A stretch of DNA of 64,000 nucleotides. It comes from an uncultured Bacteroidales bacterium (GTDB lineage: Bacteria > Bacteroidota > Bacteroidia > Bacteroidales > UBA932). Shown piece after piece: positions 10,154 through 36,008 of the stretch. The position numbers and the translations under genes are program-made. The stretch spans positions 42,880 through 106,879 of the forward strand of contig CAMEWE010000002.1 in NCBI GenBank assembly GCA_945939695.1, in the 5' to 3' direction. Every line of letters begins with the position of its first letter. The first letter of the stretch is position 1. The notes below the pieces were generated by a model, which was given only the letters and a program-made list of their open reading frames with translations, had not been told where the DNA came from and made no database searches.

Positions 10154-10161
10154 TACCTTTG
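10154..10161 (+). promoter_or_regulatory. Bacteroidetes -7 promoter box TACCTTTG for the divergent GH31
   Basis: Matches TAnnTTTG and is followed by an A-rich leader. Confidence 0.6.
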
Positions 10162-16712: not shown

Positions 16713-17419
16713 GTGCAATGAAATCAATAGCAGTGCTCACAGGCGCCGGCGTAAGCGCAGAGAGCGGACTGCAGACATACAGGGACAACAATGGCCTCTG
16801 GAACGACTACGACCCTATGGTGGTGGCATCGGTCGAGGGTTGGGCCTCCGACCCGGGGCTTGTGCTGGAGTTTTATAACAAGCGCAGGGCGGAGTTGGCG
16901 CAGACCCGTCCGAATGAGGCGCACAGGCTCATAGCGGAATTGGAAGAGAGGTACCGGGTGGATGTGATAACCCAGAACGTGGACAATCTTCACGAGAGGG
17001 CCGGCTCCACGCACGTGATTCACCTGCACGGCGAACTCACAAAGATACGCCCGCAGAACAGCTGCAACGAGGAGGACGGGTACTCCGAGAAACTGGTCGT
17101 GGACATAGGCTACGGCAGTGTCGGTTTGGGCGATATCGCCCCGAATGGAGCGCAGTACCGGCCGCACATAGTCTTTTTCGGAGAGGCGGTGCCGAAGATG
17201 GAGAGAGCGATAGACATAGTGTCCAAGGCGGATGCCGTGATTATCGTGGGTACTTCGCTGAGCGTATATCCGGCGGCAGGCTTGTACCGTTACGCTCCCT
17301 GGGAGGCTCCGATTTACCTTGTCGATCCTGCGGAAATGAGGCTGCACGACAGCCGCATAAGGCATATCAAAAAAGTTGCAAGTGAAGGAATGCGGGAATG
17401 TTTGGAACTTTTGAAATAA
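16709..17419 (+). CDS. cobB: NAD-dependent protein deacylase (class III sirtuin)
   Basis: GAGVSAESG, FYNKRR, TQNVDNLHERAG, HLHGE, RPHIVFFGE, GTSLSVYPAA. ATG 16709 overlaps the upstream stop (ATGA). Confidence 0.93.
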   Translation: MSAMKSIAVLTGAGVSAESGLQTYRDNNGLWNDYDPMVVASVEGWASDPGLVLEFYNKRRAELAQTRPNEAHRLIAELEERYRVDVITQNVDNLHERAGSTHVIHLHGELTKIRPQNSCNEEDGYSEKLVVDIGYGSVGLGDIAPNGAQYRPHIVFFGEAVPKMERAIDIVSKADAVIIVGTSLSVYPAAGLYRYAPWEAPIYLVDPAEMRLHDSRIRHIKKVASEGMRECLELLK

Positions 17420-18066: not shown

Positions 18067-18473
18067 CGCTTTGCGCAATTGTCTTTCATTTTTGTGGATA
18101 AGGCGTGAAAAATTGTAAGTATTCGGTAAAGATACTAAGGAGATTATTATGAATGGAACGGTAAACAGATTGTCACCAAAGCACTTGCGAAACTTAAAAT
18201 GTGAAATTTTACATATTTGGCAGTTAAGTTTGATAATAGGTAATTCAACGGATTTACAGGGAATAAACAGAGCGGCTGTTTCTGGATATAAATCGATTTG
18301 TAAGCTCATCTATATACAATGGAAACACAAATTACTTATATTTGTGGACATGGATCAAATGATTTGACATTGAAAAGAAAACTTCCGTTTATAAAAGAGG
18401 CTATCACACCTTATGCACTTCAGAAGCATTAGGAAACAAAGTTCCGGCAAAAGTTTATAGAAAATCTATAATT

Positions 18474-20849: not shown

Positions 20850-21051
20850 AATAGAGCACCCTGCAAACTGCAAACAAGCCTATATGAATGACCAATGGAA
20901 CCGGCTTCAGAAACCGTATCAGTACAGAAGCACGACTACGCCAGACGAAGAACATCGGTGCAATAGTCGATGATCTTGTCACGATGAGTAATGAATATCA
21001 TCGTGTGATCCGGATGCTTACGAAAAATTTGTTTTCTTCATCCAAGAGTCG

Positions 21052-21059
21052 TAAATTTG
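21052..21059 (+). promoter_or_regulatory. -7 promoter box TAAATTTG, 4 nt before the GH3 ATG
   Basis: Exact TAnnTTTG match. Confidence 0.6.
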
Positions 21060-21063
21060 AGGT

Positions 21064-23358
21064 ATGAGGAAAAGATTTTATCAGACAGCTTTGCTTTGGC
21101 TTGCGTTGTCTTGCGTAGCCTGCACTCCCAAGTCCGAGATGGACCGTTTTGTCGATGATCTGATGGGACGTATGACCCTGGAACAGAAAATCGGACAGCT
21201 GAACCTCCATTCCGCTCCCGGCTTCATTTCTGCCGAGAAGGTGATGGAAGAGGATGAAAATATCAAACTGCTCAGGCAGGGACTTCTCGGTGGCTTATAC
21301 GGATCCGGAAATCCGGAGTTGCTGCGCCAGTGCCAGGAGATTGCTCTTGAATCCGGCGCCGGCATTCCGCTAATCTTCGGCATGGACGTCATTCACGGTT
21401 ATCAGACCGTGTTCCCGGTGCCACTGGCACTGTCCACATCCTGGAATATGGATTTGATCGAGAACTGCACGCGCATTGCTGCGAGTGAAGCAGCTGCGAG
21501 CGGCATCAACTGGGTGTTCAGCCCGATGGTGGATATATGCCGCGATGCGCGCTGGGGCAGAATTGTCGAAGGCGGCGGCGAAGATCCGTATCTCGGCGGA
21601 GAGATAGCGAAGGCTATGGTGTACGGATATCAGGGCCGGGATGAGGAATATGGCACCGACGAGCTTATGGCCTGCGTAAAGCACTATGCTCTCTACGGAG
21701 GAGCGGAAGCCGGACGCGACTACAACTCCGTGTTCCTGTCCCGTCAGGAAGCGCTCAACGGCTATATGCGCCCGTATATGAAGGCCGCCGAGGCTGGAGC
21801 TGCCAGCTATATGAGTTCGTTCAACGAGTTCGAGGGCATTCCTGCATCGATGAACTCTTACCTTATGCAGGAGCTTCTCAGGGATGACTGGGGATTCAAA
21901 GGCTTCATAGTATCCGATGCCACGGCCATTGCAGAAGAGGTGAACCACGGCATCGGCGATATGCAGGAGGTGTCCGCAAGGTCGCTGCAGGCCGGATTGG
22001 ATATGGATATGAACTCTGATGCCTATATCGGCACGTTGAAAAAATCCCTTGAGGAGGGGCGGATTGCGGAAGCGGACATAGACCGTGCCTGTCGCCGCAT
22101 ACTCGAAGCCAAGTACAAGCTCGGTCTCTTCGAAGATCCGTTCCGCTATCTGGATGCAGAAAGGTATGCAAACGCCGTATATACGGAGGAGAACCGCAAG
22201 GCATCCCGCGAAGCTGCCCGAGAGTGTCAGGTGCTGCTTAAGAATAACGGTGTCCTGCCGCTTTCCCGCGATGCCCGCATTGCTGTAGTAGGCCCGCTCG
22301 CAGACGACGCTGAATCGATGACAGGCTGCTGGTCGATGTCAAGCCACGGAAAGGAAAGCGTTACCATATGGCAGGGCATATCCGAGGTGGCCAAGGCCAG
22401 TCTGTCCGAGGGGTCCTGGCTTTTCAATGATGCCGAAATGGAGGAGAATGTCCTCTACAGCCTTGCCAAATCCTTTGTTCCCGGGTTCAAGGCTCCCGAT
22501 GTCCACAGCGTCAGCCAGAAGAGCCTGATTGCGGATGCCGTAGCAAAGGCCCGCCAGGCGGATGTCGTGGTGGCGTGCGTGGGAGAACACGCAAATATGA
22601 ACGGTGAGGGTTCATCCAGGTCGGATATTAGCCTTCCTGATGCCCAGAAAGAACTGCTCAGGGCGCTCAAGGCTACCGGCAAGCCTGTGGTGATGGTTCT
22701 TGTGACCGGCCGCCCTCTCGCACTTGTGGAGGAAGATGCCTCCATGGATGCCATACTGAATGTCTGGAGCCCTGGCTCCGAGGGTGGACACGCAGTAGCC
22801 GACATACTTTTCGGGGAGGTCTCCCCTTCAGCCAAACTGACTGCATCCTTCCCTCGCAGCGTGGGCCAGCTGCCTCTTTATTACAATCATAAGAACACAG
22901 GAAGGCCTCACCCTGACGATGCTGGGTATAAGAAGTTCGTCAGCTGCTACATGGATGAAATCAATGCCCCTCTGTATCCTTTCGGCTACGGTCTAAGCTA
23001 CACGACTTTCGAATACGGCCCTGTCAGCCTGAGTTCTGCGGAAATGCCTTTGGACGGTTCTGTCATAGCGTCCGTACAGGTCAGCAACAGGGGTAAGTTC
23101 GACGCAGATGAGATAGTCCAGCTCTATATTCACGACATTTACGCCAGCTCCACCCGCCCTGTCAAGGAACTCAAGGGCTTCCGCAAGCTGCACATTCCGG
23201 CTGGGGAATCCGTTCAGGTGGATTTCACCATAACTGCTGAAGAGCTGTCGTTCTATAACCACGATCTTGAATGGGTGTGCGAGGCCGGTGATTTTGAAAT
23301 CATGCTCGGACCGAACAGCCGAGACGTTCAGAAACTCACTTTGAAAATAATTGATTGA
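21064..23358 (+). CDS. bglX: GH3 beta-glucosidase (BglX-like), predicted lipoprotein
   Basis: MTLEQKIGQL, DVIHG, RDARWGR, CVKHYA, IVSD nucleophile, PLYPFGYGLSYT, Fn3-like C-terminus. Lipobox VAC. Confidence 0.92.
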   Translation: MRKRFYQTALLWLALSCVACTPKSEMDRFVDDLMGRMTLEQKIGQLNLHSAPGFISAEKVMEEDENIKLLRQGLLGGLYGSGNPELLRQCQEIALESGAGIPLIFGMDVIHGYQTVFPVPLALSTSWNMDLIENCTRIAASEAAASGINWVFSPMVDICRDARWGRIVEGGGEDPYLGGEIAKAMVYGYQGRDEEYGTDELMACVKHYALYGGAEAGRDYNSVFLSRQEALNGYMRPYMKAAEAGAASYMSSFNEFEGIPASMNSYLMQELLRDDWGFKGFIVSDATAIAEEVNHGIGDMQEVSARSLQAGLDMDMNSDAYIGTLKKSLEEGRIAEADIDRACRRILEAKYKLGLFEDPFRYLDAERYANAVYTEENRKASREAARECQVLLKNNGVLPLSRDARIAVVGPLADDAESMTGCWSMSSHGKESVTIWQGISEVAKASLSEGSWLFNDAEMEENVLYSLAKSFVPGFKAPDVHSVSQKSLIADAVAKARQADVVVACVGEHANMNGEGSSRSDISLPDAQKELLRALKATGKPVVMVLVTGRPLALVEEDASMDAILNVWSPGSEGGHAVADILFGEVSPSAKLTASFPRSVGQLPLYYNHKNTGRPHPDDAGYKKFVSCYMDEINAPLYPFGYGLSYTTFEYGPVSLSSAEMPLDGSVIASVQVSNRGKFDADEIVQLYIHDIYASSTRPVKELKGFRKLHIPAGESVQVDFTITAEELSFYNHDLEWVCEAGDFEIMLGPNSRDVQKLTLKIID

Positions 23359-23382
23359 CACCATTTTAATTAATCTCTATTT

Positions 23383-24513
23383 ATGAAAAGAATCATTAGC
23401 TTACTTGTCGCATCAGTATTCGCGACAACAGCGCTCAACGCGCAGGAACTTGCCAACTTCGCTTTCGGAGGACGCAAGCCTATTGTGTCCCCTGAGGTGC
23501 AGAATGACAGTGTAACCTTCCGTCTGAAGGCTGACTATGCCACGGTGGTGAAGCTTTCCGCTTCCTGGCTGGGATACCAGAATATTGTAGAACTCACCAG
23601 GGGTGAGGGCAATGTCTGGTCAGTTACTCTTCCTGCACCTTCACCGGAGATCTATACCTACAACTTCATTGTTGACGGAACTTCCGTGAACGACCCTAGC
23701 AACGTGCTCGTGCAGAGGGATGGAACCCGCTACCTGAGCATGCTCCTCATCGACGGTGAGCTTTCGGAGAATTATAAGGAGGCAAACCAGAGAGGTTCTG
23801 TCACCCATATGTGGTATGACAGCGAGATACTCGGGATCAACCGCCGTCTCACCGTATATACCCCGTACGGCTATGAGGCCAACAAGAAGGCCAAGTATCC
23901 GGTGCTCTATCTTCTCCACGGTGCAGGCGGAGACGAGGAGGCCTGGACTTCCATGGGTCGCGCAGCCCAGATTCTCGACAATCTTATCGAGAAAGGTCTG
24001 GCAAAGCCTATGATTGTGGTTATGCCTAACGGCAACCCTAACCAGCAGGCGGCAGTTACCCTCAACCTCCCTACAAGCAAGATGAATTATCGTGATCCGG
24101 CTAATGCCAATGCATATGTAAGGAGCCTCTGCGAGGAAATCGTTCCATTCATCGAGAAGAATTTCCGCGCAATCCCTAAGCCTGAGTCACGCGCTATCGC
24201 CGGACTCTCGATGGGCGGCGGACACACCATCGCGGCTTCAACCCTCTATCCTCAGCTCTTCGACTATATTTGCCCGCTTTCAGCAGCAGGCAATATGACT
24301 GTGGAGCAGGCTCAGGCGCTGAAGAAGGCTGGCGTGAAACTCTACTGGATAGGTTGCGGACGTGAAGACTTCCTCTTCGAGGGCAACAATAAACTTGATG
24401 CAGTGCTCACTGAGGCCGGCCTGGAGCACACCTATTACGTGAATGGAGGCGGCCACGTCTGGTTCAACTGGAGACAGTATCTCAACATCTTCGCCCAGTT
24501 GCTTTTCAAATAG
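23383..24513 (+). CDS. Carbohydrate esterase family 1 with N-terminal CBM48-like domain
   Basis: YTYNFIVDG..V.DP, YPVLYLLHGAGGDE, AIAGLSMGG, GGHVW. Signal peptide. Confidence 0.85.
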   Translation: MKRIISLLVASVFATTALNAQELANFAFGGRKPIVSPEVQNDSVTFRLKADYATVVKLSASWLGYQNIVELTRGEGNVWSVTLPAPSPEIYTYNFIVDGTSVNDPSNVLVQRDGTRYLSMLLIDGELSENYKEANQRGSVTHMWYDSEILGINRRLTVYTPYGYEANKKAKYPVLYLLHGAGGDEEAWTSMGRAAQILDNLIEKGLAKPMIVVMPNGNPNQQAAVTLNLPTSKMNYRDPANANAYVRSLCEEIVPFIEKNFRAIPKPESRAIAGLSMGGGHTIAASTLYPQLFDYICPLSAAGNMTVEQAQALKKAGVKLYWIGCGREDFLFEGNNKLDAVLTEAGLEHTYYVNGGGHVWFNWRQYLNIFAQLLFK

Positions 24514-24523
24514 CAAATCAGAG

Positions 24524-24554
24524 AGGGTGATTGGTCAGCCAGTCACCCTTTTTT
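24524..24554 (+). terminator. Intrinsic terminator after the esterase
   Basis: AGGGTGATTGG-TCAG-CCAGTCACCCT followed by a T-run. Confidence 0.75.
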
Positions 24555-24575
24555 ATTGCTTGGCAGCCTGTTCTA

Positions 24576-25487
24576 TTAAGGCTGTGACTGATTGCGGCGT
24601 CCCGGCTTGAGTATCATAAAGATGACAGAGGCAATGCAGATTGCGATGCCGCAGCACATACGCGGCGTGAAAGGCTCTGCGAAGACGGTAGTGCCCACCA
24701 GAATGGCTGTGATAGGCTCGAATACTCCCAGCACGGAGGTTTTGGTTGGCCCTATGTACCGGGATGAAATCGCCAGAGCGAGCAGGGCAATAAGGGTAGG
24801 GAAGACGGCAAGTCCCAGGAGACGGGCGGCATCAGCCCACGAACCCAGACCCCGTATAAAGCAATCTCCTTCCCGCAGGCACTCGGCGGACCTGAGACAG
24901 GCGAACACCAGGGTGCCGAAAATCAGCACATAGAGGGTGAGCCTGTCCTCGGCAATGTTACGGAGACGCTTGCTCCGGTTGACGATGATCAGGTATGCTG
25001 AGTAGCTCAGGGCGGACAGGATGGCCAGAGCTATGCCGGGGAGTTTGATTTCTGCCCCGTCGGAGGGGCTGGACAGCAGGCATATGCCGCCAAAGGTGGT
25101 GACAATAGAGAGCCAGGTCTGCCAACTGGGGTAAAACCTCATCAGGGCCATGATAAGCGCCACGAATACGGGGTAGAGGTACACCAGAGTCGTGGCCAGT
25201 CCGGAGGGAATGAAAAGGTACGAGGCAAAGAGGAAAGCGCTGCTGCAGGCAAAGAGTACGCCGAGTGTGGCGAGTTGGGGCAGTTCCCTCCATTTCACGC
25301 GCAGTTTTTCCTTGCGTGCGGCCATCAGTACAATGATGAGAATGACGGAAAACAGATACCTGAACAAGAGCATCACCGTCACAGGCATCCCCTCGTCTAT
25401 GAGAGGCTTTGCGAAAAGCGGATTGAGTCCATATGATGCCCCCGCTGCGATTCCTGCAGAATAACCTATGATTCTTCTGTCAATCAA
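24576..25487 (-). CDS. DMT/EamA family transporter
   Basis: About 10 hydrophobic segments in two EamA repeats (SYGLNPLF, LVYLYPVFVA, LGVFEPITA). TTG start. Confidence 0.88.
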   Translation of the reverse strand: MIDRRIIGYSAGIAAGASYGLNPLFAKPLIDEGMPVTVMLLFRYLFSVILIIVLMAARKEKLRVKWRELPQLATLGVLFACSSAFLFASYLFIPSGLATTLVYLYPVFVALIMALMRFYPSWQTWLSIVTTFGGICLLSSPSDGAEIKLPGIALAILSALSYSAYLIIVNRSKRLRNIAEDRLTLYVLIFGTLVFACLRSAECLREGDCFIRGLGSWADAARLLGLAVFPTLIALLALAISSRYIGPTKTSVLGVFEPITAILVGTTVFAEPFTPRMCCGIAICIASVIFMILKPGRRNQSQP

Positions 25488-25631
25488 GTTTGGCTTTTTT
25501 GAAAACCCTGTTTCTCTGAATTCTTATGAACAGTTCTGCCTTGTCCATGGATACATTGAAATTTCTCAAAATTACGAATTCTCTTCATAACTTGCAAATA
25601 TTTCCGACAAAGATGGAGTGGAGCTGTCTTG

Positions 25632-25663
25632 TTTGTGGAAGAGTCAAATAATTGCTATATTTG
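25632..25663 (+). promoter_or_regulatory. Promoter of the kinase/AAA/FHA/PP2C operon: TTTG (-33) and TATATTTG (-7)
   Basis: TTTG at 25632-25635, 20-nt spacer, TATATTTG at 25656-25663, 24 nt before ATG 25688. Confidence 0.7.
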
Positions 25664-25687
25664 TAGATAAGGCATATTGAACGGTAC

Positions 25688-26608
25688 ATGAACTTTGTTA
25701 TGGCAGATGATATCAGGACCAGGCAGCGCACACGTGAAGAGGCTCAGGCTGCCGTGAAACAGCAGACTGAAGAGGGGACTCCCTTCGGAAAATGTCCCAA
25801 ATGCGGAGCCCCTACGGTTCCGGACTTTGAGCTTTGCCCGAATTGCGGGGCGAAGCTGGTGGATTATTGTACCTTCTGCGGTGCCATGATGGGTCCTGAT
25901 GATATGGACTGCCCGGAGTGCGGAATGCCGTCGGAGGGGATGGAGTGCCCCGATTGCAAGATAATCAATTACCGTCCTTTCTGCCGAGCCTGTGGAAGAC
26001 CCCTTTCCCGGGCTGCCCGAAAAGCTGTGGAAAAAGCTAAGATGGATCCTAAGGTGCGTGAGGCGGCCAGGGCAATGGTGCGTATTTCCGAGCTTCAGGC
26101 AGAATTGGATTCAGCAGCTTGTAAAGAAGAATGTGCTGAAAATCAAGAACCTACGGAAGGGAAACTCCGCCTTGATGAACTTATGTCCAAGGTGGGATTC
26201 ACGACGGCGGACATGCCATCTGCGAAGCGCAGGAAGATGGGCCGCAGCCGTGAGGAAGTGATGGCCGAGTACGCCAGGGCGGTGGAAGAAGCCAACAGGA
26301 TTTTCGAGGAGATGCTGCCTCCGGCCGGAATGACACCCCAGGAGCAGCGCAATTATTACACTGCCAGAAAGGTGGCCGTGATGGAGACAATAGAAGAAAG
26401 CTGGTATGAAGTTACGGTGAGCGTGGGAATGTACTGGGAGTGCAACAAGTGCCATGTCAAACACAATAATCCATCCGAATGTTATGTGCGCGAGTTTGGA
26501 GGCAAATGGATTCAGGACAAGATTACCAGGGTGGTGCCGGAAGGAACCCCTGGGGCAGTTAAATATACCAAGGTTGTGGGAGAGAGAAAGGTATACAAAA
26601 GAGAGTAG
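25688..26608 (+). CDS. Multi-zinc-ribbon (DZR-type) hypothetical protein
   Basis: Six CxxC motifs (CPKC, CPNC, CTFC, CPEC, CPDC, CRAC), a charged helical middle and a further CNKC-H-C cluster. Confidence 0.8.
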   Translation: MNFVMADDIRTRQRTREEAQAAVKQQTEEGTPFGKCPKCGAPTVPDFELCPNCGAKLVDYCTFCGAMMGPDDMDCPECGMPSEGMECPDCKIINYRPFCRACGRPLSRAARKAVEKAKMDPKVREAARAMVRISELQAELDSAACKEECAENQEPTEGKLRLDELMSKVGFTTADMPSAKRRKMGRSREEVMAEYARAVEEANRIFEEMLPPAGMTPQEQRNYYTARKVAVMETIEESWYEVTVSVGMYWECNKCHVKHNNPSECYVREFGGKWIQDKITRVVPEGTPGAVKYTKVVGERKVYKRE

Positions 26609-26611
26609 ATT

Positions 26612-29482
26612 ATGGCACAGGAGGACAAAATTAAACAGATCCTGGAAGGACTCCACAAAAAGGAGAATGGCACGACAGTCCCTCAGAAGACTGCTGCAAC
26701 CCCTCAAAAGACTGCTGTGGCCCCTCAGAAGACTGCTGTAGCCCCTCAGAAGACCGATGCGGGACCGGGTGCCGTGTCCAAAGGCTCCTCCGATGTGAAA
26801 TGTGCCTATAGCGAAGGCGCCAAAATCAGCGCCGGCAGCAGGGACTGCATCGTGGAGAAAGTCATAGGCAGCGGATCGGAAGGCGAACTCTATGTTGTGT
26901 CGGCTTCAGGCAGGCGCTATGCCCTGAAGCTTTATCGCAAGGGGCATCAGCCGAATTTCAAAGTGCTACCGTTTCTGGATAAGCTTGCCGGGAAAGGTTA
27001 CCTCGTGGATACTGTCGACTACGGCCCCGACTATGAACTTCTGGAATATTTTCCTGAGGGCAATGCCGCAGCTGCCGGATTGAAGGGTAACGCGCAGGCC
27101 ATACTTGCCATCGCTCTCAAGACCGCAATGGCTCTGGACAAGCTGCACAAGGAGGGCATACTGCATAAGGATGTCAAGCCTGCAAATATACTCATAAAAG
27201 ACAGGGACAGTTGGGACACTGTCCTGTGCGACTTCGGAATTGCAGACATTATGGATGCTCAGGGGAAGTGCGCCACAACCCAGGTGCGTACTCCCATATA
27301 TGCCGCTCCGGAAGTGTATTCGGACACTGTGACCATTTCGGGGGTAAGCTATACTGAACTGAGCGCCAAGGCTGACTTCTATTCCCTTGGTATGACCATA
27401 CTCTCGCTATGGGCAGGGGAAAGCGCTTTCCTTGCAAAAGAGCACCAGATGGCTATTGACAAGGTAAAGGGTAGGATTGCCGTGCCTTCCGATATGCCGG
27501 ACCCCCTGGCGAGGATATGCCGCGGACTGCTAATCAGGAACCCGGCCAAACGCTGGGACTGGGAGGAAATCGAGAAGACGGTAAACGGCCGGGATGTGCC
27601 GGTGGAGGAAGATGAACTGCTGGAGGATCTCAATATCACCTTCAGTGCTTCCAAACACCTGTTCGCCAATACCCCTGAGGAACTTGTCGGATGTATGGTT
27701 CAGGAACCTGAACTGGCAAGGAAGTATCTCTACCGCGGCACTGTGGAGAAGTGGTTGAGACCCTATCCTGAACTTGCCCTTGAGATTCAGGACATAGTGG
27801 AGAAACGCTATCCGAAAGACCAGGATACAGGACTTATGGCAGCGATTTACCTGTTGGATCCGACTGTCCCCCTGCGGCTCTCCGGCAGTTTGCGAAAGGA
27901 CGGAAAGGCCGTCTGCCGTGATGCCGTGACCCTGAAGGACGTGGGCAATTTTTTCAACGACAGCTTACCGGATCCGGACACCGTCAATCTTTTGAATTCT
28001 GACACTTTTGTGGAATGGGTCCGTTCCAGAAGTGCGGATGTGGCTGCCAAACTGCCTGCCACAAAAGCCTGCTATCCGACATATATGCTTCGCGTGCAGA
28101 CTGTGGACCCTATGTCGGACATAAATCTCATCAACGACAGCTCGGACCCGCTGTACGCTATGACTCAGCAGGGCATTGGCCTTGTACTCAATGAGATATA
28201 CAATATTTTCTGGGGTAGGTACAGGGGCAATCTGGATACGCTGATCAGCGATTGGCCCAAGAAAGCCAACGCGCCGCTGAACAGGCGCATACCCCTGAGT
28301 ACAATCAGCAATGTGGTGATGGGCCTTTATTATCCTGATGAATTCTGCTACCTTAAGACTTTCTTCAAGCTGAAAGGCGGCCGTTTCACCAAGCAGCTCA
28401 GCTGGTACGAGCACTGCGTGGACTATCACAGCTCCGACAATAAGAAGAAAGCCGGTCCCAAGGATGAGCGCTACCTCGTTCAGTGTGCCTGGATGAGGAT
28501 AGTCAAGGGATTCGGTCGCACTCCGGAATACAACTTCCCGGGGAGTGGAATCAGCATAAGGGACAGGAAGGATCTTGCAGCGATAGGCAAGGATGAGTTG
28601 CAAGGCGAATATGTGAAGGGCGGTCTGGTCGGTTGGCTTGCCGTGCAGTACCACGAGGACCCTTTCGCAGACCTTTCTGCCAAGTATAGCTATGAGCGTC
28701 TTCTAGAGAGCTATCTCGAGGAAATCAGACTGATTGATGCGAAACTTGAACCCGTGAAGCGTTTTGACCTTGCTAAGAAAAAGGCTGCTGCCGCGCTGGC
28801 GGGAGGAAAAGCCAGAATCAATGGCCTGAACATCAGGACAGCCCTGCAATGGCTGTGTCTGTTCGTCCTCGCCATGGTTCCTTGTTTGATTCTGCTCACT
28901 ATGCTGGTATGCTCCATCATCGAGCATCCGACCTTGGATGTGTCCGGTCTGCGCCTTGAATCCTTCTTCTGGCCTGTGGGTCTGGTGGTTTCCGTAATTA
29001 TATTCTTTGCCAGCGATTCGGACGGCTGCCTCATTCCCATCATCGGAGGTGCCGTTTCTGCTGTTGCAGTTTTTTTCCTGATCAGGATTTTGGGTGCATA
29101 TGTACTCTATATCTTTGCCGCAGTCGTGCTTGCTGTGCTCGGAATGCTTGTATTCTATGCTGTCAAATTTCTAAAGAGCGGCAATGCAGCCGTTGCGCGC
29201 AGGTTCTCCAAGCCGGGGTTTGAGGAAAACGTGTTGGAACCACTCTACTTTGCCTTCAGCGATGAGACCGATTTCGATTCCTCACTCAACGGGGCTTTCA
29301 ACGACAGTGAGCTTCTCAGCTGGAAGCTGGAGCTTAAGAGCAGGCGGAAGTTCATAATCTCATTCGTGGTCGTGGTCTGGATCCTGATGGGGCTCAGTAT
29401 GTTGATTCCGGGCAGCAGCCGATTCGACAATATGGCCAGGCCATTGCTGGAAAAAGTAATGCCGGCAGAGAAGCAGGAATAA
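26612..29482 (+). CDS. Hanks-type Ser/Thr protein kinase with C-terminal multi-pass membrane domain
   Basis: GSGSEG, ALK, HKDVKPAN, DFG, YAAPE, ADFYSLG. About five hydrophobic helices near the C-terminus. Confidence 0.92.
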   Translation: MAQEDKIKQILEGLHKKENGTTVPQKTAATPQKTAVAPQKTAVAPQKTDAGPGAVSKGSSDVKCAYSEGAKISAGSRDCIVEKVIGSGSEGELYVVSASGRRYALKLYRKGHQPNFKVLPFLDKLAGKGYLVDTVDYGPDYELLEYFPEGNAAAAGLKGNAQAILAIALKTAMALDKLHKEGILHKDVKPANILIKDRDSWDTVLCDFGIADIMDAQGKCATTQVRTPIYAAPEVYSDTVTISGVSYTELSAKADFYSLGMTILSLWAGESAFLAKEHQMAIDKVKGRIAVPSDMPDPLARICRGLLIRNPAKRWDWEEIEKTVNGRDVPVEEDELLEDLNITFSASKHLFANTPEELVGCMVQEPELARKYLYRGTVEKWLRPYPELALEIQDIVEKRYPKDQDTGLMAAIYLLDPTVPLRLSGSLRKDGKAVCRDAVTLKDVGNFFNDSLPDPDTVNLLNSDTFVEWVRSRSADVAAKLPATKACYPTYMLRVQTVDPMSDINLINDSSDPLYAMTQQGIGLVLNEIYNIFWGRYRGNLDTLISDWPKKANAPLNRRIPLSTISNVVMGLYYPDEFCYLKTFFKLKGGRFTKQLSWYEHCVDYHSSDNKKKAGPKDERYLVQCAWMRIVKGFGRTPEYNFPGSGISIRDRKDLAAIGKDELQGEYVKGGLVGWLAVQYHEDPFADLSAKYSYERLLESYLEEIRLIDAKLEPVKRFDLAKKKAAAALAGGKARINGLNIRTALQWLCLFVLAMVPCLILLTMLVCSIIEHPTLDVSGLRLESFFWPVGLVVSVIIFFASDSDGCLIPIIGGAVSAVAVFFLIRILGAYVLYIFAAVVLAVLGMLVFYAVKFLKSGNAAVARRFSKPGFEENVLEPLYFAFSDETDFDSSLNGAFNDSELLSWKLELKSRRKFIISFVVVVWILMGLSMLIPGSSRFDNMARPLLEKVMPAEKQE
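26681..26764 (+). repeat. Four tandem 21-bp coding repeats (PQKTAAT/PQKTAVA/PQKTAVA/PQKTDAG)
   Basis: Units CCTCA(G/A)AAGAC... start at 26681, 26702, 26723 and 26744. Confidence 0.95.
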
Positions 29483-29528
29483 CGCTTTTGATTAAAACAA
29501 TCATTTACTTGAGAAACCTGAGATAGAT

Positions 29529-32500
29529 ATGGTTTGCAATAAATGCGGAAAGGATAACAGGAAGGAGGCGAAGTACTGTCGATTCTGCGGAACTGAGTTC
29601 TCCCGGGCTTCTGTCCCTGGAGAGCTTATCTGCAAGGCAGGGATACTCCCTGAGCTGGAAAAGCTGGAAGATAAACTGAAGGTTGCGGGAATAATAGCCG
29701 AAGGAGGAGCCCGAATAGGTATGGACTGCCTGATATTGGGTGATTCCGGCAGCGGCAAGAACTTCATCGCCAATATGATCGCAGACAAAATGCTATCTTC
29801 AGGGGTGGTGAAGAAGAAGCCGATGGCAGTGGATGCCTCGGATTGGGATAAATTCTCTTCTGACTTCGACAAGAACATTTCGTCCATCAAGGACGGGATA
29901 CTGCTCATTACCAATGCCCATAAACTCCTTCCGACGTCCAAAGCCTCCAACGTCAACCAGCTTGACAGGCTCTTCAACAGGATGCGCAGTACCGAAGGTG
30001 CTCCGGTAGTGCTGCTCTGCGGGCTTCTGAACGAGCTTTCCGTGTTCATGGAGTACAACAAGGACGTGCGGCGGCTCTTCGAATTCGAGTTCTCCCTGGA
30101 AGCCTTCGACATAAGCGGTCTGAGCGAACTGGCAATGACAATCTTCAGGGAAAGGTATGGAGCAGGCGTGGCCGAGGGGGTGGAAGAATGTCTGAGAAGC
30201 CATTTTTCATGGTATATGCGCCAGGCCGACCTGGGCTACACCAACGGGCATCTTGCCGAGAAGGTCGCGGAGGACATATATGTGAAGGCGGCTCTGCGCG
30301 GCAGCAGGATCATTGAAACGCAGGACATAGACCCTGACAGGTGCTTTGTACCCAAAAGTGAGGAAGATATTCTTGCCGACCTGGACGGATATGTCGGTCT
30401 TCAAAGTGTCAAGGACGAAATCAGGGCAATCATACGCAATGTCAAGAAACGCAAGGAGAAGGGTGTCAAATCCAAACTGCTTTGCGACCACTATATCTTC
30501 ACCGGCAATCCAGGCACGGGCAAAACCACTTTTGCACGCAAGTTCGGGGAAGTCCTCAATGCCATTGGCGCCCTGCCTACGGGACAGTTCGTGGAGATTT
30601 CAGGCAAAGATTTCATAGGCCGCTTTCAGGGCGATTCCGAAGCCAATGTGAAGAATTACGTTGCCAAGGCAATGGGCGGCGTGCTCTTCATCGACGAGGC
30701 CTACGCTCTTTCGGGCAGCGGGGACGGAAAGGGAGGATACGGAATGGATGCGGTCAATACCCTGCTCAACCTTCTTGAAAACCGCAAGGGGGATTTTGTC
30801 TGCATTATGGCGGGTTACACCAGGGAAATGGGGAATTTCGTCCGCATGAATCCGGGCATCCCTTCCCGTTGCAATGTCACTATAGAATTCCCCGACTACA
30901 ACGCCAGGGAACTGGAGCAGATATTCCGCAGACTGCTCGCAAACAATAATGAGAACACGGTTTTCACCCTTGATGATGAGGCCGGGAAGATGCTTCCGAA
31001 GATATTCGACAGGATGTACCTCAAGCGCGGGGATACTTTCGGCAACGCCCGTGAGGTCAGGAATCTCTTCGATCTGGCTGTGAAGCGCTTGCGTCTGCGA
31101 GAAGCTGCAGATGACACTTTGAGCTACGCGGATCTGGTGGGTGAGGATGCTACGGAGGACATAGCTGTCGAGGCAATAATGAAGGAACTTGACGGATTCG
31201 TAGGAATGCAGGGAGTCAAGAAGGCGGTACGGCTCATAGTGGAGGAGGCTGCGGTGCAGAAGAAACTGGTTGAGCTGGGCGATGCCGAGGAAGGACTGAC
31301 AAGATTCAACATCATCCTGACAGGAAATCCCGGCACGGGAAAGACCAGTGTGGCGCGTACCTTCGGCAGAATATTCAAGGCTCTGGGAGTGACTGCGACA
31401 GACCGGGTGACAGAAAAGGTCCCGGACAATATCATAAGCAAGTACGTGAACGAGTCGGCGCAGAATATGGATGCCGCCGTCAACGAAGCGATGGGAGGCG
31501 TACTCTTCCTGGATGAGGCATATGACCTCAACCCTATGGATCCGGCAGGGCAGAGCAAGAACAAGGAGGGCGAAAATGCTGTGCGGACGCTGATGACGCG
31601 TATGGAGAACGATGCGGGAAAGTTCGTGGCGATACTCGCTGGTTATCCTAAGGAAATGGAAGATTTCCTGAACTCCAACAAGGGCTTGAAGCGGCGTTTC
31701 AGCCATTTCATACATATTGAAGACTATACGGCCGAGGAATTGCTGGAGATATACGAGCGTGCGGCAAAGGCAAAGAAAAACAATTTCACCCTTGCGGACG
31801 AGCAGGTCAGGATGAAGGCACTGAATATGTTCCGCAATATGGTGGCGATGAAGGACGACAAGTTCGGAAACGCCGGCGAAGCCATGAAGATGGTGGCGCA
31901 GACCAAAACCAATATCTACAAAAGGCTGGCTGCCGTTCCGCCAGAGCAATGGACCCCTGAGATGGCGCATACAGCCTATCTGGAGGACATTCCGTACGTG
32001 GAGCCTAAGAAGCTCTCGATAGACGGATGTCTCGCAGAGCTCAATGCGCTTGTAGGTCTTGATGGCGTGAAAAAGTCCCTGACAAAACTGGCGCACACTA
32101 TCAATAACGAAATAGAGAGCGCCAGGCTGGAGCAGCGCCGTCCGGAGATACCTTTAGGACACTACCTCTTCCTTGGAAACCCAGGCACAGGAAAGACTAC
32201 GGTAGCCCGACTTATGGGGAAGATACTGTACTCAATGGGAGCCTTGCCTTCTCCTAAGGTGGTTGAGGTGGGGAAGTCTGACCTTGTGGGGCGATACTTG
32301 GGTGATACAGAAGCAATTACCACCCATGTGATCAACTCCGCGATGGGCGGAATACTCTTCATCGACGAGGCCTACCAGCTCTCTGCGGACCAGTATGGAA
32401 AGACTGTGCTCGAGATTCTTGTGCCGAGGTTGGAGAATGACAGGGGTAAATTCGTGTGCATAGCTGCCGGCTACAGCTACGAAATGCAGGCTTTTCTGCA

Positions 32501-32819
32501 GGCAAACAGCGGATTCGAGTCCCGGTTCCCGGAGCGCAATCGCATTGTGTTTGAGGACTATACGCCCGATGAGCTCTACAGTATCTTCAAAATGCGCGCC
32601 GACAAGGAAGGGTACAAACTCGACCCTATGGCAGAGAATGCGGTCAGAGGCAGGCTTACGATGATGTATAACAAGCGTGGCCGCAGTTTCGGTAACGGAC
32701 GCGACGCACGCAACCTCTTCGACGAGGTGAAGTCCAACCTCGCCGCACGCCTCGCTGAGGAAGTCGGGAGCGTGACCCCGGAACAGCGTAAAACCATAAT
32801 GATGGAGGATGTGCTATGA
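29529..32819 (+). CDS. Tandem four-module AAA+ ATPase of the SpoVK/CbbX/EccA type with N-terminal zinc ribbon
   Basis: CNKC...CRFC at the N-terminus. Walker A at 29739 (GDSGSGKN), 30504, 31323 and 32175 (GNPGTGKT). Three LF(I/L)DEAY Walker B motifs and AGY...SRF/RRF-type signatures. Confidence 0.92.
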   Translation: MVCNKCGKDNRKEAKYCRFCGTEFSRASVPGELICKAGILPELEKLEDKLKVAGIIAEGGARIGMDCLILGDSGSGKNFIANMIADKMLSSGVVKKKPMAVDASDWDKFSSDFDKNISSIKDGILLITNAHKLLPTSKASNVNQLDRLFNRMRSTEGAPVVLLCGLLNELSVFMEYNKDVRRLFEFEFSLEAFDISGLSELAMTIFRERYGAGVAEGVEECLRSHFSWYMRQADLGYTNGHLAEKVAEDIYVKAALRGSRIIETQDIDPDRCFVPKSEEDILADLDGYVGLQSVKDEIRAIIRNVKKRKEKGVKSKLLCDHYIFTGNPGTGKTTFARKFGEVLNAIGALPTGQFVEISGKDFIGRFQGDSEANVKNYVAKAMGGVLFIDEAYALSGSGDGKGGYGMDAVNTLLNLLENRKGDFVCIMAGYTREMGNFVRMNPGIPSRCNVTIEFPDYNARELEQIFRRLLANNNENTVFTLDDEAGKMLPKIFDRMYLKRGDTFGNAREVRNLFDLAVKRLRLREAADDTLSYADLVGEDATEDIAVEAIMKELDGFVGMQGVKKAVRLIVEEAAVQKKLVELGDAEEGLTRFNIILTGNPGTGKTSVARTFGRIFKALGVTATDRVTEKVPDNIISKYVNESAQNMDAAVNEAMGGVLFLDEAYDLNPMDPAGQSKNKEGENAVRTLMTRMENDAGKFVAILAGYPKEMEDFLNSNKGLKRRFSHFIHIEDYTAEELLEIYERAAKAKKNNFTLADEQVRMKALNMFRNMVAMKDDKFGNAGEAMKMVAQTKTNIYKRLAAVPPEQWTPEMAHTAYLEDIPYVEPKKLSIDGCLAELNALVGLDGVKKSLTKLAHTINNEIESARLEQRRPEIPLGHYLFLGNPGTGKTTVARLMGKILYSMGALPSPKVVEVGKSDLVGRYLGDTEAITTHVINSAMGGILFIDEAYQLSADQYGKTVLEILVPRLENDRGKFVCIAAGYSYEMQAFLQANSGFESRFPERNRIVFEDYTPDELYSIFKMRADKEGYKLDPMAENAVRGRLTMMYNKRGRSFGNGRDARNLFDEVKSNLAARLAEEVGSVTPEQRKTIMMEDVL

Positions 32820-33259
32820 TACAGTGTCCCGATTGCAGAGCTATGATTCCTGACGACAGCGCATTTTGCGACCAGTGCGGCAGGGAGTTGAAATGGTGCC
32901 CGGAGTGCAAACGTCCGAAACGGGGACTTGAGTGCCCGGTGTGCGGCAGTGATCTTGTCACCGGGCGCAAGTACCTTGGCGGCACGCCGCCGCAGGCCTC
33001 GGAACTGGTCGGAAACGGCTGGAGGCTCGTCCTGAAACCCGGGGAATTCGGCCGGAGCGGAGGAATGTGGCCTGAACTGGGCAGCTGCCCCTATGTCTCG
33101 GGGCGCCACGGTTCCGTGGAAAAGGACGCGGACGGCTGGACCATAATTGATAATAAATCCACCAACGGCACTTTTGTCAACGGGCAGCGTATCAGCAGAG
33201 CCAAGTTGAAAAAAGGTGACCGCGTTACTATTGCAACCCTTGATTTTGTAGTGGAATGA
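32816..33259 (+). CDS. Double-zinc-ribbon plus FHA domain protein
   Basis: Four CxxC motifs, then FGR, SGRH and STNGTFVNG (FHA pThr-binding motifs). Confidence 0.9.
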   Translation: MIQCPDCRAMIPDDSAFCDQCGRELKWCPECKRPKRGLECPVCGSDLVTGRKYLGGTPPQASELVGNGWRLVLKPGEFGRSGGMWPELGSCPYVSGRHGSVEKDADGWTIIDNKSTNGTFVNGQRISRAKLKKGDRVTIATLDFVVE

Positions 33260-33996
33260 AACTGGATATTCAGGCAATATGCCACAAAGGCCTCGTGCGT
33301 GAGAACAATGAGGATGCGCTCTCCATCGGAGGACTGCTGCTGCGCGACGATTCCACAACGCTCACGGTCAGCACCCCGGAGGACGGTTTCTTCTACCTGC
33401 TCGTCTCCGACGGTATGGGCGGACACGAGGATGGGGAAGAGGCGAGCCGCTTCGCCCTGGATGAGATAAAGGAGCAGCTCGTGTTGCATCAGATTTCCCC
33501 GGAACGCTTCGAGGATGAGCTGAGGGAGGCTGCCTCCTACATATCCTTCAAGCTGAACAGCGCTGCGGCTCAGCGAGGTCAGAGCAGGCCTATGGGCTGC
33601 ACTCTTACGGGGGTGATATGGCATTACGGGCACATATGGCTCATCAATGCCGGAGACAGCCGCAGCTATCGCTTCAGGGAGGGAGTGCTGCGCCAACTCA
33701 CTACGGATGACAACGAGCGTGGGCTTACAGGAAACCCGGAGGCCGGAAAACTGCTGCTGAACTGCCTTGGAGGGGGCTGTGAGGGCCGTTTGCAGGTGCA
33801 GAGCCTGGACGGGAAACTCCTGGAAGGGGACGCGCTTCTGATCTGCTCCGACGGCCTGAGCGATATGCTCTCAGACGAGGAAATCGAAGAGGCCCTTTGC
33901 GGCGGGGACTGCAGTGCAGAAAGCCTCTTCCGCAGTGCGTGCGAAAGAGGCGGTACTGATAACATCTCCGTAATCCTTGCGAGAATTGCGGGCTGA
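33256..33996 (+). CDS. PP2C/PPM family Ser/Thr phosphatase
   Basis: RENNED, SDGMGG, NAGDSR, CSDGL, GTDNIS. Confidence 0.93.
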   Translation: MKLDIQAICHKGLVRENNEDALSIGGLLLRDDSTTLTVSTPEDGFFYLLVSDGMGGHEDGEEASRFALDEIKEQLVLHQISPERFEDELREAASYISFKLNSAAAQRGQSRPMGCTLTGVIWHYGHIWLINAGDSRSYRFREGVLRQLTTDDNERGLTGNPEAGKLLLNCLGGGCEGRLQVQSLDGKLLEGDALLICSDGLSDMLSDEEIEEALCGGDCSAESLFRSACERGGTDNISVILARIAG

Positions 33997-34010
33997 TGAA
34001 TTATTGCTGA

Positions 34011-36008
34011 CTATCTGATCGAATATTCCTTTCCGTATTTGAGCATCTGCCCGAGGAAACTGTCGGCATACTCGAGCTTGTAGTCCACCACCTTGCCCTT
34101 CTTGACCACAGGCACGATGTCCGGGTTCACGAAACCTCCGTATGGCTTGAGCTGAAGAGCAGCATATCTTTCCAGCACCTCCTTGTGCAGTTCAGGGTCA
34201 ATGTTGACTGCGTATGTCTCCACAAGGCGTTTCCCGGCCTCATAGTCGCCCTCGCTCTTGATGCGCTGCACTTCAGCCAGCAGCCTGGCGAACAGTCCCC
34301 TCAGGGCTTCGAAGTCATTGACCACGAAATAGGTCTTGCCGTCGCGCACTTTCTTTTCTATGACCTTGTCTGCCCTGCCCTGCTCGTAGCACCACTCGGC
34401 TATGAGCTTGCGGTTCTGCATATGGGCTTCGGTGTTCTTCGCTCCGAGTTCGACGCGGGTGAACTGGGTGAAGAGTCCGTTGCGTATGTATGAGGCATAT
34501 TCGGCCTTGTATGCATCCTTGTCAGGCATTATGCCCAATTCGACCAGTTTCGGGTCTGCCGCATAGTAGAGGCCGAAGAGATCCGCCCGCGTCTCCTCGA
34601 GGGTGGAGGAATACTCTCCCATTGCCGTGGTAGCCACGCCCGGAAGCAGCTGGCCGGAACCGTGACCTAGACATTCGTGGAGATCGGTGTGGATTTCGCT
34701 TGCATAGGAACCGAACTTTCTCTCGAGTTCCTTCTCCTTCTCGTCCCAGGCGAACTCGTCGAGCATATTCTTCGGCGACTCGTTGGCGGCGTAGTCGTAT
34801 GCGTGGGTGATGTTGGCTATGGTCACCGATTTGCTGCCGTATTCCTTCCTGATCCAGTCGGCATTAGGGAGATTGATGCCTATAGGCGTTGCAGGGTATG
34901 CATCTCCGGATATGCAGGCCACATTGATGACCTTTGCGGACACGCCCTTGACTTCGGACTTCCTGAATCTCGGGTCCACAGGGGAGTTGTCCTCAAACCA
35001 CTGTGCGTTCGCGGAGAGGATTTCGCTCCGCTCCGATGCCTTGTGGTCTTTTATGTTGACGTTGGCCTCCCAGGCACCCTTGCGCCCAAGCGGGTCGTTG
35101 TAGTCCTCCACGAACCCGTTCACGAAGTCTATCGTGCCGTCCAACTCCTTGACCCACTTGATGTTGTACTCGTCCCATTTGCGCAGGTCGCCAGTCCTGT
35201 AATACTCCACAAGGGTTGCGATGTACTCGCGTTGCGCGTCATTCTCCGCCACTGCTGCAGCCTTTTCGAGTTCCTCGCAAATCTTGCTCAACTCCCTGGA
35301 ATAGATGCCGCCCACGCACCACGGCAGCTCTGTGACCTTGCCGTCTATCTTCACCACCTTGGTGTTGAGGCCGTAGGATATGGGATGCGGGTCGTTCCTG
35401 TCCTCTATGCCTGCATAGTAATCCTCGACTTCTTTCCTGCTGACCCCTTCGTAAAAGTTTACTGCCGAAAGACTTACAATGTCGCCCTCGCTGCTGGTAG
35501 AACGGCGCTGGAGCCCGTTCTCCCTGTCATAGACAAAGTCAAGTACCTGACTGTCGTATGAGTCCACCGCCTTCATCAGGCTTGCGAAGTACTCCCTGCT
35601 GCAGGCCGGAAAGAACTTGTCCTCGGCGTAGTGATGGTGCACTCCGTTGGAGAAGAAGACCCGCTTTGCATATACTTCAAAATCCTTGTACCCGGCGCAT
35701 TCCCTGTCTCCTGCGTACTCGCTGACTATTTTCTCCAGCACCCTCCTGAGCTCGAGGTTTCCGGCGCAGTTCTGGTCCCAGTAGATGTCGCGTCCCCATT
35801 TGGCCGCCTCGGCAAGGTGATATACATACTCCTTCTGCTGAAGGCTGAGCTCCTCCCATCCCGGGACGGTGTACCGAATCACCTTGATGTCTGCAAATTC
35901 ATCAAGAAGATACCTGAAGCCTTCCACCTTGTCGTTCTGAAGTGACGAACAAGATGCTGCAAGCGTTCCGATTCCAAGCATTGCGAAAAATTTTAGATGG
36001 CTGTTCAT
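34011..36008 (-). CDS. Dipeptidyl-peptidase III (peptidase M49), predicted lipoprotein
   Basis: HECLGH and EETRAD zinc motifs. Lipobox ASC. ATG at 36008; the ORF-track TTG at 36035 lies inside the promoter box TATATTTG (36033-36040, minus strand). Confidence 0.92.
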   Translation of the reverse strand: MNSHLKFFAMLGIGTLAASCSSLQNDKVEGFRYLLDEFADIKVIRYTVPGWEELSLQQKEYVYHLAEAAKWGRDIYWDQNCAGNLELRRVLEKIVSEYAGDRECAGYKDFEVYAKRVFFSNGVHHHYAEDKFFPACSREYFASLMKAVDSYDSQVLDFVYDRENGLQRRSTSSEGDIVSLSAVNFYEGVSRKEVEDYYAGIEDRNDPHPISYGLNTKVVKIDGKVTELPWCVGGIYSRELSKICEELEKAAAVAENDAQREYIATLVEYYRTGDLRKWDEYNIKWVKELDGTIDFVNGFVEDYNDPLGRKGAWEANVNIKDHKASERSEILSANAQWFEDNSPVDPRFRKSEVKGVSAKVINVACISGDAYPATPIGINLPNADWIRKEYGSKSVTIANITHAYDYAANESPKNMLDEFAWDEKEKELERKFGSYASEIHTDLHECLGHGSGQLLPGVATTAMGEYSSTLEETRADLFGLYYAADPKLVELGIMPDKDAYKAEYASYIRNGLFTQFTRVELGAKNTEAHMQNRKLIAEWCYEQGRADKVIEKKVRDGKTYFVVNDFEALRGLFARLLAEVQRIKSEGDYEAGKRLVETYAVNIDPELHKEVLERYAALQLKPYGGFVNPDIVPVVKKGKVVDYKLEYADSFLGQMLKYGKEYSIR

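Follow-up and report, generated by a model that had tools for sequence, protein, structure and literature searches.

A conserved five-gene cassette of gut and rumen Bacteroidales that may couple a receptor kinase to a tandem-module AAA+ protein remodeller

What do a membrane Ser/Thr kinase, an FHA protein, a PP2C phosphatase, a large AAA+ protein and a cysteine-rich zinc-ribbon protein do together when they are encoded side by side? This question is raised by a cassette of an uncultured Bacteroidales bacterium of the UBA932 lineage (contig CAMEWE010000002.1, assembly GCA_945939695.1), which lies within a stretch of 64,000 nucleotides, called here the window. We refer to its genes, in order, as g1 (zinc-ribbon protein), g2 (kinase), g3 (AAA+ protein), g4 (FHA protein) and g5 (phosphatase). 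The initial annotation had read them as a signalling or conflict module, possibly anti-phage or related to envelope stress. We found that the cassette is a real unit retained across deep divergence. Our interpretation, to which we assign a probability of about 50%, is that it constitutes a switch by which a receptor kinase gates an AAA+ protein remodeller, resident in gut and rumen Bacteroidales.

A phyletic survey with two peptide patterns, covering one genome per GTDB species, yielded 84 carriers, nearly all of which were labelled as uncultured gut or rumen Bacteroidales metagenome-assembled genomes (MAGs). Among them were Cryptobacteroides, a 'Rikenellaceae' bin (84% identity), Paludibacteraceae, Ca. 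Minthenecus and Ca. Limimorpha. All five genes were present in 66 of the 80 species-level loci retained and were colinear in 65 of these 66; contig ends interrupted 13 of the 14 incomplete loci. The kinase gene was relocated behind the PP2C gene in one locus (L083), and the only broken cassette (L035) lacked the AAA+, FHA and PP2C genes after the kinase gene and had an Rhs-like toxin block there. Searches with the non-catalytic part of the kinase revealed a second branch in Prevotella at about 25% identity. It has the five genes in identical order, and all five proteins could be aligned across the branches at 26-35% identity. The earlier supposition that the genes form a conserved unit was thus borne out by the co-occurrence check. 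The description of g1 as an orphan was not, since its family comprised 518 clusters at 90% identity in the window's branch and 1,336 in the Prevotella branch (more than 1,800 together). Full-text literature searches did not retrieve any account of this cassette, the closest systems described being vWA-kinase-FHA-PP2C operons, and it appears to be undescribed, as had been suggested.

Two survey loci carried additional peculiarities. At positions 14123-16880 of L035, a minus-strand block encodes an apparent Rhs/YD-repeat toxin C-terminus (…HRWMVPDPKSEEYYGVSVYAYCGGNPMNAVDIDG…) and small immunity-like open reading frames (ORFs); it represents either an insertion or a misassembly. A contig labelled Acetatifactor sp. 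(L042) had a complete cassette, 54-75% identical to that of the window. This Firmicute-labelled locus is most likely due to contamination of the bin by a Bacteroidales contig and not to horizontal transfer.

The promoter and genes of the cassette in the window are as follows.

25632 to 25663, + strand: Bacteroidetes-type promoter, read from the sequence, with -33 TTTG (25632-25635), a 20 nt spacer and -7 TAtaTTTG (25656-25663).
25688 to 26608, + strand: g1, 306 aa multi-zinc-ribbon protein (Pfam DZR), always the first cassette gene.
26612 to 29482, + strand: g2, 956 aa membrane Hanks-type Ser/Thr receptor kinase (ORF, Pfam, hydropathy and conservation).
29529 to 32819, + strand: g3, 1096 aa protein with an N-terminal zinc ribbon and four CbbX/EccA/SpoVK-type AAA+ modules (Pfam, NCBIfam and structure match).
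32816 to 33259, + strand: g4, 147 aa protein with a double zinc ribbon (residues 4-44; Pfam DZR 2.3e-8) and an FHA domain (about residues 65-147; Pfam FHA 2e-14).
33256 to 33996, + strand: g5, 246 aa Stp1-like PP2C phosphatase (Pfam PP2C_2 5.8e-14), metal-binding motifs intact.

The five + strand ORFs span 25688-33996, in agreement with the coordinates, co-orientation and single -33/-7 promoter given in the initial annotation. The junctions are 3 nt between g1 and g2, 46 nt between g2 and g3, and ATGA overlaps at both g3/g4 and g4/g5. An alternative start of g1 at ATG 25700 would give 302 aa, as called in locus L087. According to Pfam, the flanking genes encode EamA (upstream, divergent) and Peptidase_M49/DPP III (downstream, convergent). 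The window contains 7 copies of the Bacteroidetes promoter motif where 0.36 would be expected by chance, and 0 shuffles attained 7. Where checked, these copies directly precede gene starts (GH3, EamA and the operon), and none lies within the operon. This motif test was used in place of generic scans of the window for sigma-70 promoters (9 vs 7.3 in shuffles) and terminators (11 vs 10.9 in shuffles), both of which were uninformative; an Rfam scan of the entire window gave no match. In gut metatranscriptome assemblies, contigs covered all five genes and spanned the junctions g1/g2 (26424-27339), g2/g3 (29120-29622) and g4/g5 (33049-33286), which is consistent with a single transcript but no proof of one.

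The kinase g2 contains four recognizable regions.

26680 to 26754, + strand: 21-bp tandem repeat (Tandem Repeats Finder), 3.6 copies with 88% match, encoding 4 x P-Q-K-T in residues 24-48.
26855 to 27574, + strand: catalytic domain, residues 82-321 (Pfam Pkinase 9e-27), with K106, HKD186, N191, DFG207 and APE intact.
27599 to 28840, + strand: middle domain, residues 330-743 (414 residues), cytoplasmic and mostly helical, of uncharacterised fold.
28853 to 29407, + strand: membrane region, residues 748-932, with about five transmembrane (TM) helices, N-in/C-out, by hydropathy scan.

The kinase motifs retained in the catalytic domain (Gly-rich loop, ALK Lys106, HKD186, N191, DFG207 and APE) were at least 95% conserved in 71 orthologues. 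The middle domain was modelled by AlphaFold2 with good scores (pLDDT 92.3, pTM 0.87), and a Foldseek search against PDB gave no significant match (best E 1.2, TM 0.15); Pfam has no family for it. When 1.84 billion representative proteins were searched with phmmer, this domain was present in only 227 clusters. Nearly all of these proteins were 900-1,350 aa long, with the domain starting at about residue 330-400, directly behind the kinase domain. The kinase domain also preceded it in 7 of 7 distant representatives, whose C-terminal modules differ (Sel1, YARHG or none). The middle domain and g1, both without a match in PDB, are well suited to structural biology.

Positive charges flank the cytoplasmic sides of the TM helices, placing the N-terminus inside and the C-terminus outside. 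A cytoplasmic LEPLY(F/Y) loop joining TM4 and TM5 was conserved both in orthologues and in the cross-branch comparison. Beyond the last TM helix, most orthologous kinases have PG_binding_1, and Sel1 or YARHG takes its place in distant relatives. The kinase of the window ends in a 24-residue outer tail without this periplasmic domain; the closest relative (L007) and the entire Prevotella branch also have the short tail. Taken together, the family follows a receptor-kinase design in which a predicted cytoplasmic core is constant and outer sensors are exchangeable. Elsewhere in the window, a gene at 42361-43161 (+) codes for a 266 aa protein that consists of three PASTA repeats without a kinase or PBP domain. 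PASTA domains usually belong to PknB-type kinases or PBP2x; this stand-alone gene sits between genes for a LysE transporter and RluD-Lnt, 8 kb from the PASTA-less receptor kinase.

In the N-terminal tail, at least three APQxTAx heptads were present in about 62 of 71 orthologous kinases, and Prevotella-branch tails bear different Thr-containing repeats (GMSDATLV, DDKTMVY). In the wider kinase family, strict tandem repeats were found in 30 of 106 tails, compared with 1 of 106 size-matched control windows. Thr was present in 29 of these 30 repeat units, usually as [K/G]-T-hydrophobic, and Thr content was 10.4% in the tails vs 4.9% elsewhere in the protein. Across the family, the repeat sequence turns over completely and Thr persists. 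The Thr array is likely a multi-phosphothreonine dock for the FHA protein g4. The number of repeats varies widely among species, from 3 to more than 10 units, and because the array is encoded by a tandem DNA repeat of variable copy number, slippage could tune the number of phospho-sites.

The AAA+ protein g3 was the best conserved cassette protein (median identity 70% vs 51-68% for the other four). Its parts are listed below.

29535 to 29588, + strand: CxxC...CxxC zinc ribbon, residues 3-20 (sequence and conservation).
29691 to 30368, + strand: AAA+ module 1, residues 55-280, a degenerate copy whose Walker A reads GDSGSGKN and whose Walker B (ILLITNA) lacks the acidic pair.
30375 to 31148, + strand: AAA+ module 2, residues 283-540, with GNPGTGKT, VLFIDEAY and pore-loop-like FIGRFQG.
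31161 to 31973, + strand: AAA+ module 3, residues 545-815, with GNPGTGKT, VLFLDEAY and a degenerate pore loop.
31986 to 32816, + strand: AAA+ module 4, residues 820-1096, with GNPGTGKT, ILFIDEAY and pore-loop-like LVGRYLG.

Pfam recognized three AAA + AAA_lid_6 units in g3. Module 1 shares homology with the other three (E=3e-7 vs module 4 by BLASTP, 1.5e-6 vs EccA1), but the last residue of its Walker A is N, and TN stands where the DE of Walker B is expected. GNPGTGKT and (V/I)LF(I/L)DEAY occur in modules 2-4 and are invariant in modules 2 and 4. The earlier count of four AAA+ units therefore holds for homologous modules and not for catalytic ones: module 1 is predicted to be catalytically degenerate, and three modules have intact motifs. 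A distant clade has a version of about 825 aa with one canonical module fewer.

The nearest solved relatives of g3 were CbbX (2.5e-42) and EccA1 (9lur; 3.6e-38 with a single module). Modules 2-4 each resemble members of the CbbX/EccA/SpoVK clade in forming a full AAA + AAA_lid_6 unit, and modules 2 and 4 share the pore-loop region (L/F)(V/I)G-x-(Y/F)-x-G. Known members of this clade have a single module per chain and are encoded beside Rubisco, type VII secretion system (T7SS) or sporulation genes, EccA having an N-terminal TPR. In contrast, g3 fuses four modules behind a zinc ribbon, in the genome of a non-sporulating, non-autotrophic member of the Bacteroidales that has no T7SS. NCBIfam scores were 539.8 bits for EccA (TIGR03922, cut-off 466.65) as a sum over 4 stretches of the repeated modules, 460.3 bits for CbbX (TIGR02880, cut-off 459.25) as a sum of 3 stretches, and 571 bits for SpoVK (TIGR02881) summed over 4 stretches of this four-module protein from a Bacteroidales MAG. 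The window has neither T7SS nor Rubisco genes, and the N-terminus of g3 has a zinc ribbon and degenerate AAA module instead of a TPR. Membership of g3 in the SpoVK, EccA or CbbX families was rejected, as each score adds up several stretches of the repeated modules and both context and architecture fail.

Three segments of g1 stand out in the alignment.

25793 to 25993, + strand: residues 36-102, three tandem CxxC...CxxC zinc ribbons with (nearly) invariant Cys pairs (Pfam DZR).
26315 to 26377, + strand: residues 210-230, LPPAGxTPQEQRNYxTARKVA motif of invariant alignment columns.
26435 to 26482, + strand: residues 250-265, W-x-C-x-x-C...H...C zinc knuckle with invariant W250, C252, C255, H259 and C265.

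Besides these segments, g1 has a helical segment, and its C-terminal knuckle lies within a beta-rich domain (strands in the AlphaFold2 model, pLDDT 76). Foldseek detected no significant match of g1 in PDB, a negative that is limited by the moderate quality and multi-domain shape of the model. T216-P217 of the conserved motif was kept as S-P, together with RNY, in the cross-branch alignment with Prevotella, and this site may serve as a phospho-acceptor. Since g1, g3 and g4 each bear zinc ribbons, three of the five proteins carry the same ribbon type. In g4, the FHA motifs GR, SxxH and NG are intact, as are RxxNED, DGMGGH, DGLSD and DN in g5, and across 68-71 orthologues the conservation of these motifs was mostly 80% or higher. 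The kinase, FHA and PP2C motifs that had led to the proposal of an intact writer, reader and eraser are thus all present and conserved. By its intact motifs, overlapping junctions and single promoter motif, the cassette would qualify as a general Hanks kinase/PP2C/FHA phospho-Thr module.

The genomic neighbourhood bears on whether the cassette is resident or mobile. A pig-gut MAG (GCA_028720345.1) matched the window at 99% identity over 17 kb, and the closest species retained the upstream GH3-esterase pair without EamA. In Prevotella, ABC-F and M13 peptidase genes upstream and genes for HTS, a U32 peptidase and an unknown protein of about 325 aa downstream were constant even among species whose kinases share no more than about 53% identity. 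In locus L095, whose kinase and AAA+ protein are 40% and 43% identical to those of the window, the cassette adjoins orthologues of the window's S21, SIR2 (71%), unknown-380 (50%) and L21/L27 (91-93%) genes. These constant neighbours speak against the patchy presence at the EamA-DPP III site that had been envisaged. An exact look-up of the window's DPP III returned nothing on record, and that of EamA returned matches on cassette-bearing contigs only. The 102 representatives of recurrent flank genes, each found in at least two loci, had mainly housekeeping functions, TerB being the most recurrent family; no integrase was among the 25 recurrent flank families listed. PADLOC gave only single matches on these 102 proteins, mostly to candidate (PDC) families and otherwise stray single-domain ones, with no assembled known system, and a scan of viral contigs with the g1 alignment detected no g1 relative. 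The stated absence of type VI secretion system (T6SS), T7SS and vWA genes was confirmed for the 64-kb window and extended to the recurrent neighbours. Because of stable synteny, housekeeping flanks and the lack of viral carriers, the cassette fits long vertical residence in the chromosomes of gut and rumen Bacteroidales and not a defence island.

About a third to a half of the loci in the window's branch have accessory genes, in variable order and either upstream or downstream. They encode a Sel1-like protein of about 470 aa, an unknown protein of about 194 aa, a 265 aa TerB-domain protein, an M48 peptidase-TerB fusion, a TerB-TPR protein, a DUF1963 protein and a small membrane protein; Sel1/TPR scaffolds occur in relatives. 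A chaperone-like function has been put forward for the TYPP superfamily (PMC4275035), of which DUF1963 is a member. By association only, this set suggests a protein-handling or membrane-stress output. The earlier view of the cassette as self-contained is correct for the window, which has no accessory genes, and does not extend to those relatives that attach TerB, M48-TerB, DUF1963 or Sel1/TPR genes.

The remainder of the window is ordinary chromosome. A glycoside hydrolase cluster at 432-12724 includes GH9, a BNR/sortilin-like protein and three GH31 paralogues, with GH3 and an esterase further along; no SusC/SusD pair was found inside the window. At 15570-17419 (+), the gene for a 380 aa protein that matches no Pfam family runs into the beginning of a SIR2-family gene (236 aa). 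This pair is conserved beside the cassette in L095 (14047-15902; 50% and 71% identity), and probably comprises a CobB-type deacetylase and an uncharacterised partner. An NCBI MAG of the same species was 99.0% identical to window positions 18296-35487 and then diverged. It carries an AAA_14/DUF4143 ATPase gene (compare L087 17193-18853) at the window's low-GC stretch near 18296 (about 40-44% GC, with S21 and small ORFs), which places a strain-level breakpoint at about 18296, about 7 kb upstream of the cassette. A 133 aa protein encoded at 59722-60123 (+) consists of a type I restriction HSDR_N_2 domain alone; its gene sits between ribulokinase-like (FGGY family) and CCA-adding/poly(A) polymerase genes, with no other restriction-modification genes near.

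Five-gene co-inheritance, gene order, intact motifs (kinase, PP2C, FHA and three of the four AAA+ modules) and kinase architecture are established, and the following mechanism is proposed from them. A membrane or envelope cue would activate the kinase, which would autophosphorylate on the Thr repeats in its N-terminal tail. The zinc-ribbon FHA protein would then dock on this multi-phosphothreonine array and recruit or license the zinc-ribbon AAA+ protein at the membrane, together with its obligate partner g1, which may act as adaptor or client. In the T6SS, there is a precedent in the FHA protein TagH/Fha1, which binds phospho-Thr on the kinase PpkA (PMC13584744). The AAA+ protein, being of the CbbX/EccA/SpoVK class, would engage and remodel a client protein, and PP2C would remove the phospho-marks and reset the switch. 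The output could be envelope-linked or membrane-protein remodelling or quality control, which is suggested because relatives attach TerB, M48-TerB, TYPP/DUF1963 and Sel1/TPR genes. The relay logic of the initial annotation (membrane kinase, FHA, AAA+, PP2C reset) agrees with this anatomy, and the Thr-repeat tail adds support. A more specific version, which we offer only tentatively, is that the phosphorylated, fast-evolving Thr array is a multivalent landing pad with a threshold or counting function, on which the FHA adaptor assembles the AAA+ motor and g1 at the membrane. The cassette would then be a lineage-wide system of envelope surveillance and remodelling (Prevotella, UBA932/Cryptobacteroides and Paludibacteraceae) with two new domains, namely the kinase middle domain and g1.

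Several observations weigh against the switch as proposed. Everything beyond the intact, co-inherited parts is what we infer. The depth of the metatranscriptome contigs was low, resembling that of the flanks and not above it, so that DNA carry-over is possible. The Thr array could instead mimic a substrate, act as a linker or be glycosylated, and with Ala or Pro at pT+3 it departs from the classic preferences of FHA domains. The conserved g1 site is Ser in the Prevotella branch, and phospho-Ser is not read by FHA domains. The kinase of the window itself has no periplasmic sensor domain, and the accessory genes that hint at proteostasis are absent throughout this window. In addition, the survey design gives species-level carriers and not true prevalence.

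Other functions may be considered for the same set of proteins. The cassette could regulate the cell wall or division like the actinobacterial PknB-PstP-FhaA/FhaB proteins, with PG_binding_1 reading peptidoglycan and the AAA+ protein acting SpoVK-like on a wall-synthesis factor. SpoVK, which is required at a late, wall-related stage of sporulation, was the best-scoring model for the AAA+ modules. The cassette also resembles PknB-PstP-FhaA/FhaB (FipA), PrkC/PrpC and Stk1/Stp1 in combining a receptor kinase, which in most orthologues has an outer domain that binds peptidoglycan, with a co-operonic PP2C and a small FHA protein, with matches of g4 to FhaB/FipA (5.8e-9) and of g5 to Stp1/IreP (Stp1_PP2C, 1.7e-38). 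However, all NCBIfam matches of the FHA and PP2C proteins were far below family cut-offs, and g2 matched the PknB/PASTA family NF033483 over its catalytic core only (49.5 bits, cut-off 450), without PASTA repeats. In place of PASTA, the kinases have PG_binding_1 or no outer domain at all. PG_binding_1 is dispensable, as it is absent from the window, L007 and all of the Prevotella branch and replaced by Sel1/YARHG elsewhere. RodA, PBP and Fts genes were not linked in the window or among recurrent neighbours, and the cassette adds AAA+ and zinc-ribbon partners, a multi-pass anchor and a unique cytoplasmic kinase domain. A role in wall regulation is thus unlikely. Service as regulator or chaperone for a machine encoded elsewhere (T6SS-iii, the type IX secretion system or another export apparatus), in the manner of PpkA-PppA-Fha1/ClpV or EccA/T7SS, is highly improbable. 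The T6SS threonine-phosphorylation pathway is mirrored in its membrane Hanks kinase with outer sensor (PpkA/TagE), PP2C eraser (PppA/TagG), FHA reader (Fha1/TagH) and AAA+ ATPase output (ClpV) (PMC13584744); kinase, PP2C and FHA are encoded together here as they are there, and the AAA+ modules match EccA (TIGR03922; EccA1 9lur). In contrast to that pathway, the FHA protein of the cassette is small and zinc-ribboned, and an extra obligate zinc-ribbon protein is present. Its AAA+ protein consists of four tandem CbbX/EccA/SpoVK modules and is not of the ClpV/ClpB type (TssH 4.6e-8; 31.8 bits vs a cut-off of 884.95 for TIGR03345 VI_ClpV1). Secretion-system genes were neither within the 64 kb nor recurrent beside the cassette in more than 90 loci, contrary to what would be expected if homologous loci always accompanied such a system, and a review lists PpkA, PppA and Fha1 for Pseudomonadota only (PMC13584744).

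Anti-phage defence by abortive infection would have the kinase sense infection, the AAA+ protein or a released client arrest the cell or attack the phage, and PP2C prevent autoimmunity. Kinase-phosphatase modules are known in phage defence, e.g., KKP (PMC11341870). The kinase domain matched the PADLOC models mad6 (8.6e-27) and PD-T4-6 (3.9e-21), the AAA modules matched IetA and TRIP13, and the accessory genes are variable and shuffled. Ter operons confer phage and colicin resistance in E. coli, and accessory TerB genes link many relatives of the cassette, but not this window, to Ter. However, the likeness to PD-T4-6, MADS mad6, Stk2 and KKP is limited to the Hanks catalytic domain and, for KKP, a phosphatase partner; the partner genes of these systems are absent. 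The PADLOC matches concerned generic catalytic cores, with none for g1, FHA or PP2C, and the accessory genes had no match save a marginal capP (E=0.0034) for the M48-TerB protein. Membership in any PADLOC-DB v2 defence system was rejected for the five cassette and seven accessory proteins, given catalytic-core matches only. Neither defence-island neighbours nor mobility genes were seen, synteny was stable over deep divergence, and g1 was on no viral contig. All components were strongly conserved, the AAA+ protein most, and rapid sensor diversification was not evident. Anti-phage function is therefore very unlikely, and the conflict-island view proved to be the weakest part of the initial annotation, whose signalling-to-remodeller logic stands. 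The genomic setting speaks for a resident role in housekeeping or stress, which corrects the tempting label of a new defence system. Chance adjacency of unrelated genes has a negligible probability: it is effectively refuted by colinearity in 65 of 66 loci, overlapping stop and start codons, an order kept at 26-35% identity and the single promoter motif.

Among stress modules, TerY-P is a vWA-kinase-PP2C triad defined by its vWA partner. Kinase-PP2C modules, with or without FHA, are further represented by E. coli YegI-YegK-YegL and the vWA-kinase-FHA-PP2C genes DRA0331-0334 of Deinococcus (bioRxiv 10.64898/2026.01.23.701218). Where those modules have their vWA partner, the present cassette has an AAA+ protein, and no vWA was found in any locus examined. 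A phospho-Thr switch is nothing new in itself; what sets this one apart is that it is coupled to a four-module CbbX-class motor, with a dedicated zinc-ribbon partner, a Thr-repeat tail and a new kinase domain.

Bacteroidales dominate gut and rumen communities, and their Ser/Thr phospho-signalling is almost unexplored. The cassette described here is widespread in them, with more than 1,800 marker-gene clusters in two deep branches and Prevotella among its hosts, which is more than could be known from a single locus. It joins the classic kinase/FHA/PP2C logic to an unusual tandem motor of the CbbX/EccA class, and the Thr-repeat tail provides a concrete and directly testable hypothesis of multivalent FHA recruitment. 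Since known members of this AAA+ class need a specific client, identification of the client would define a new physiological pathway.

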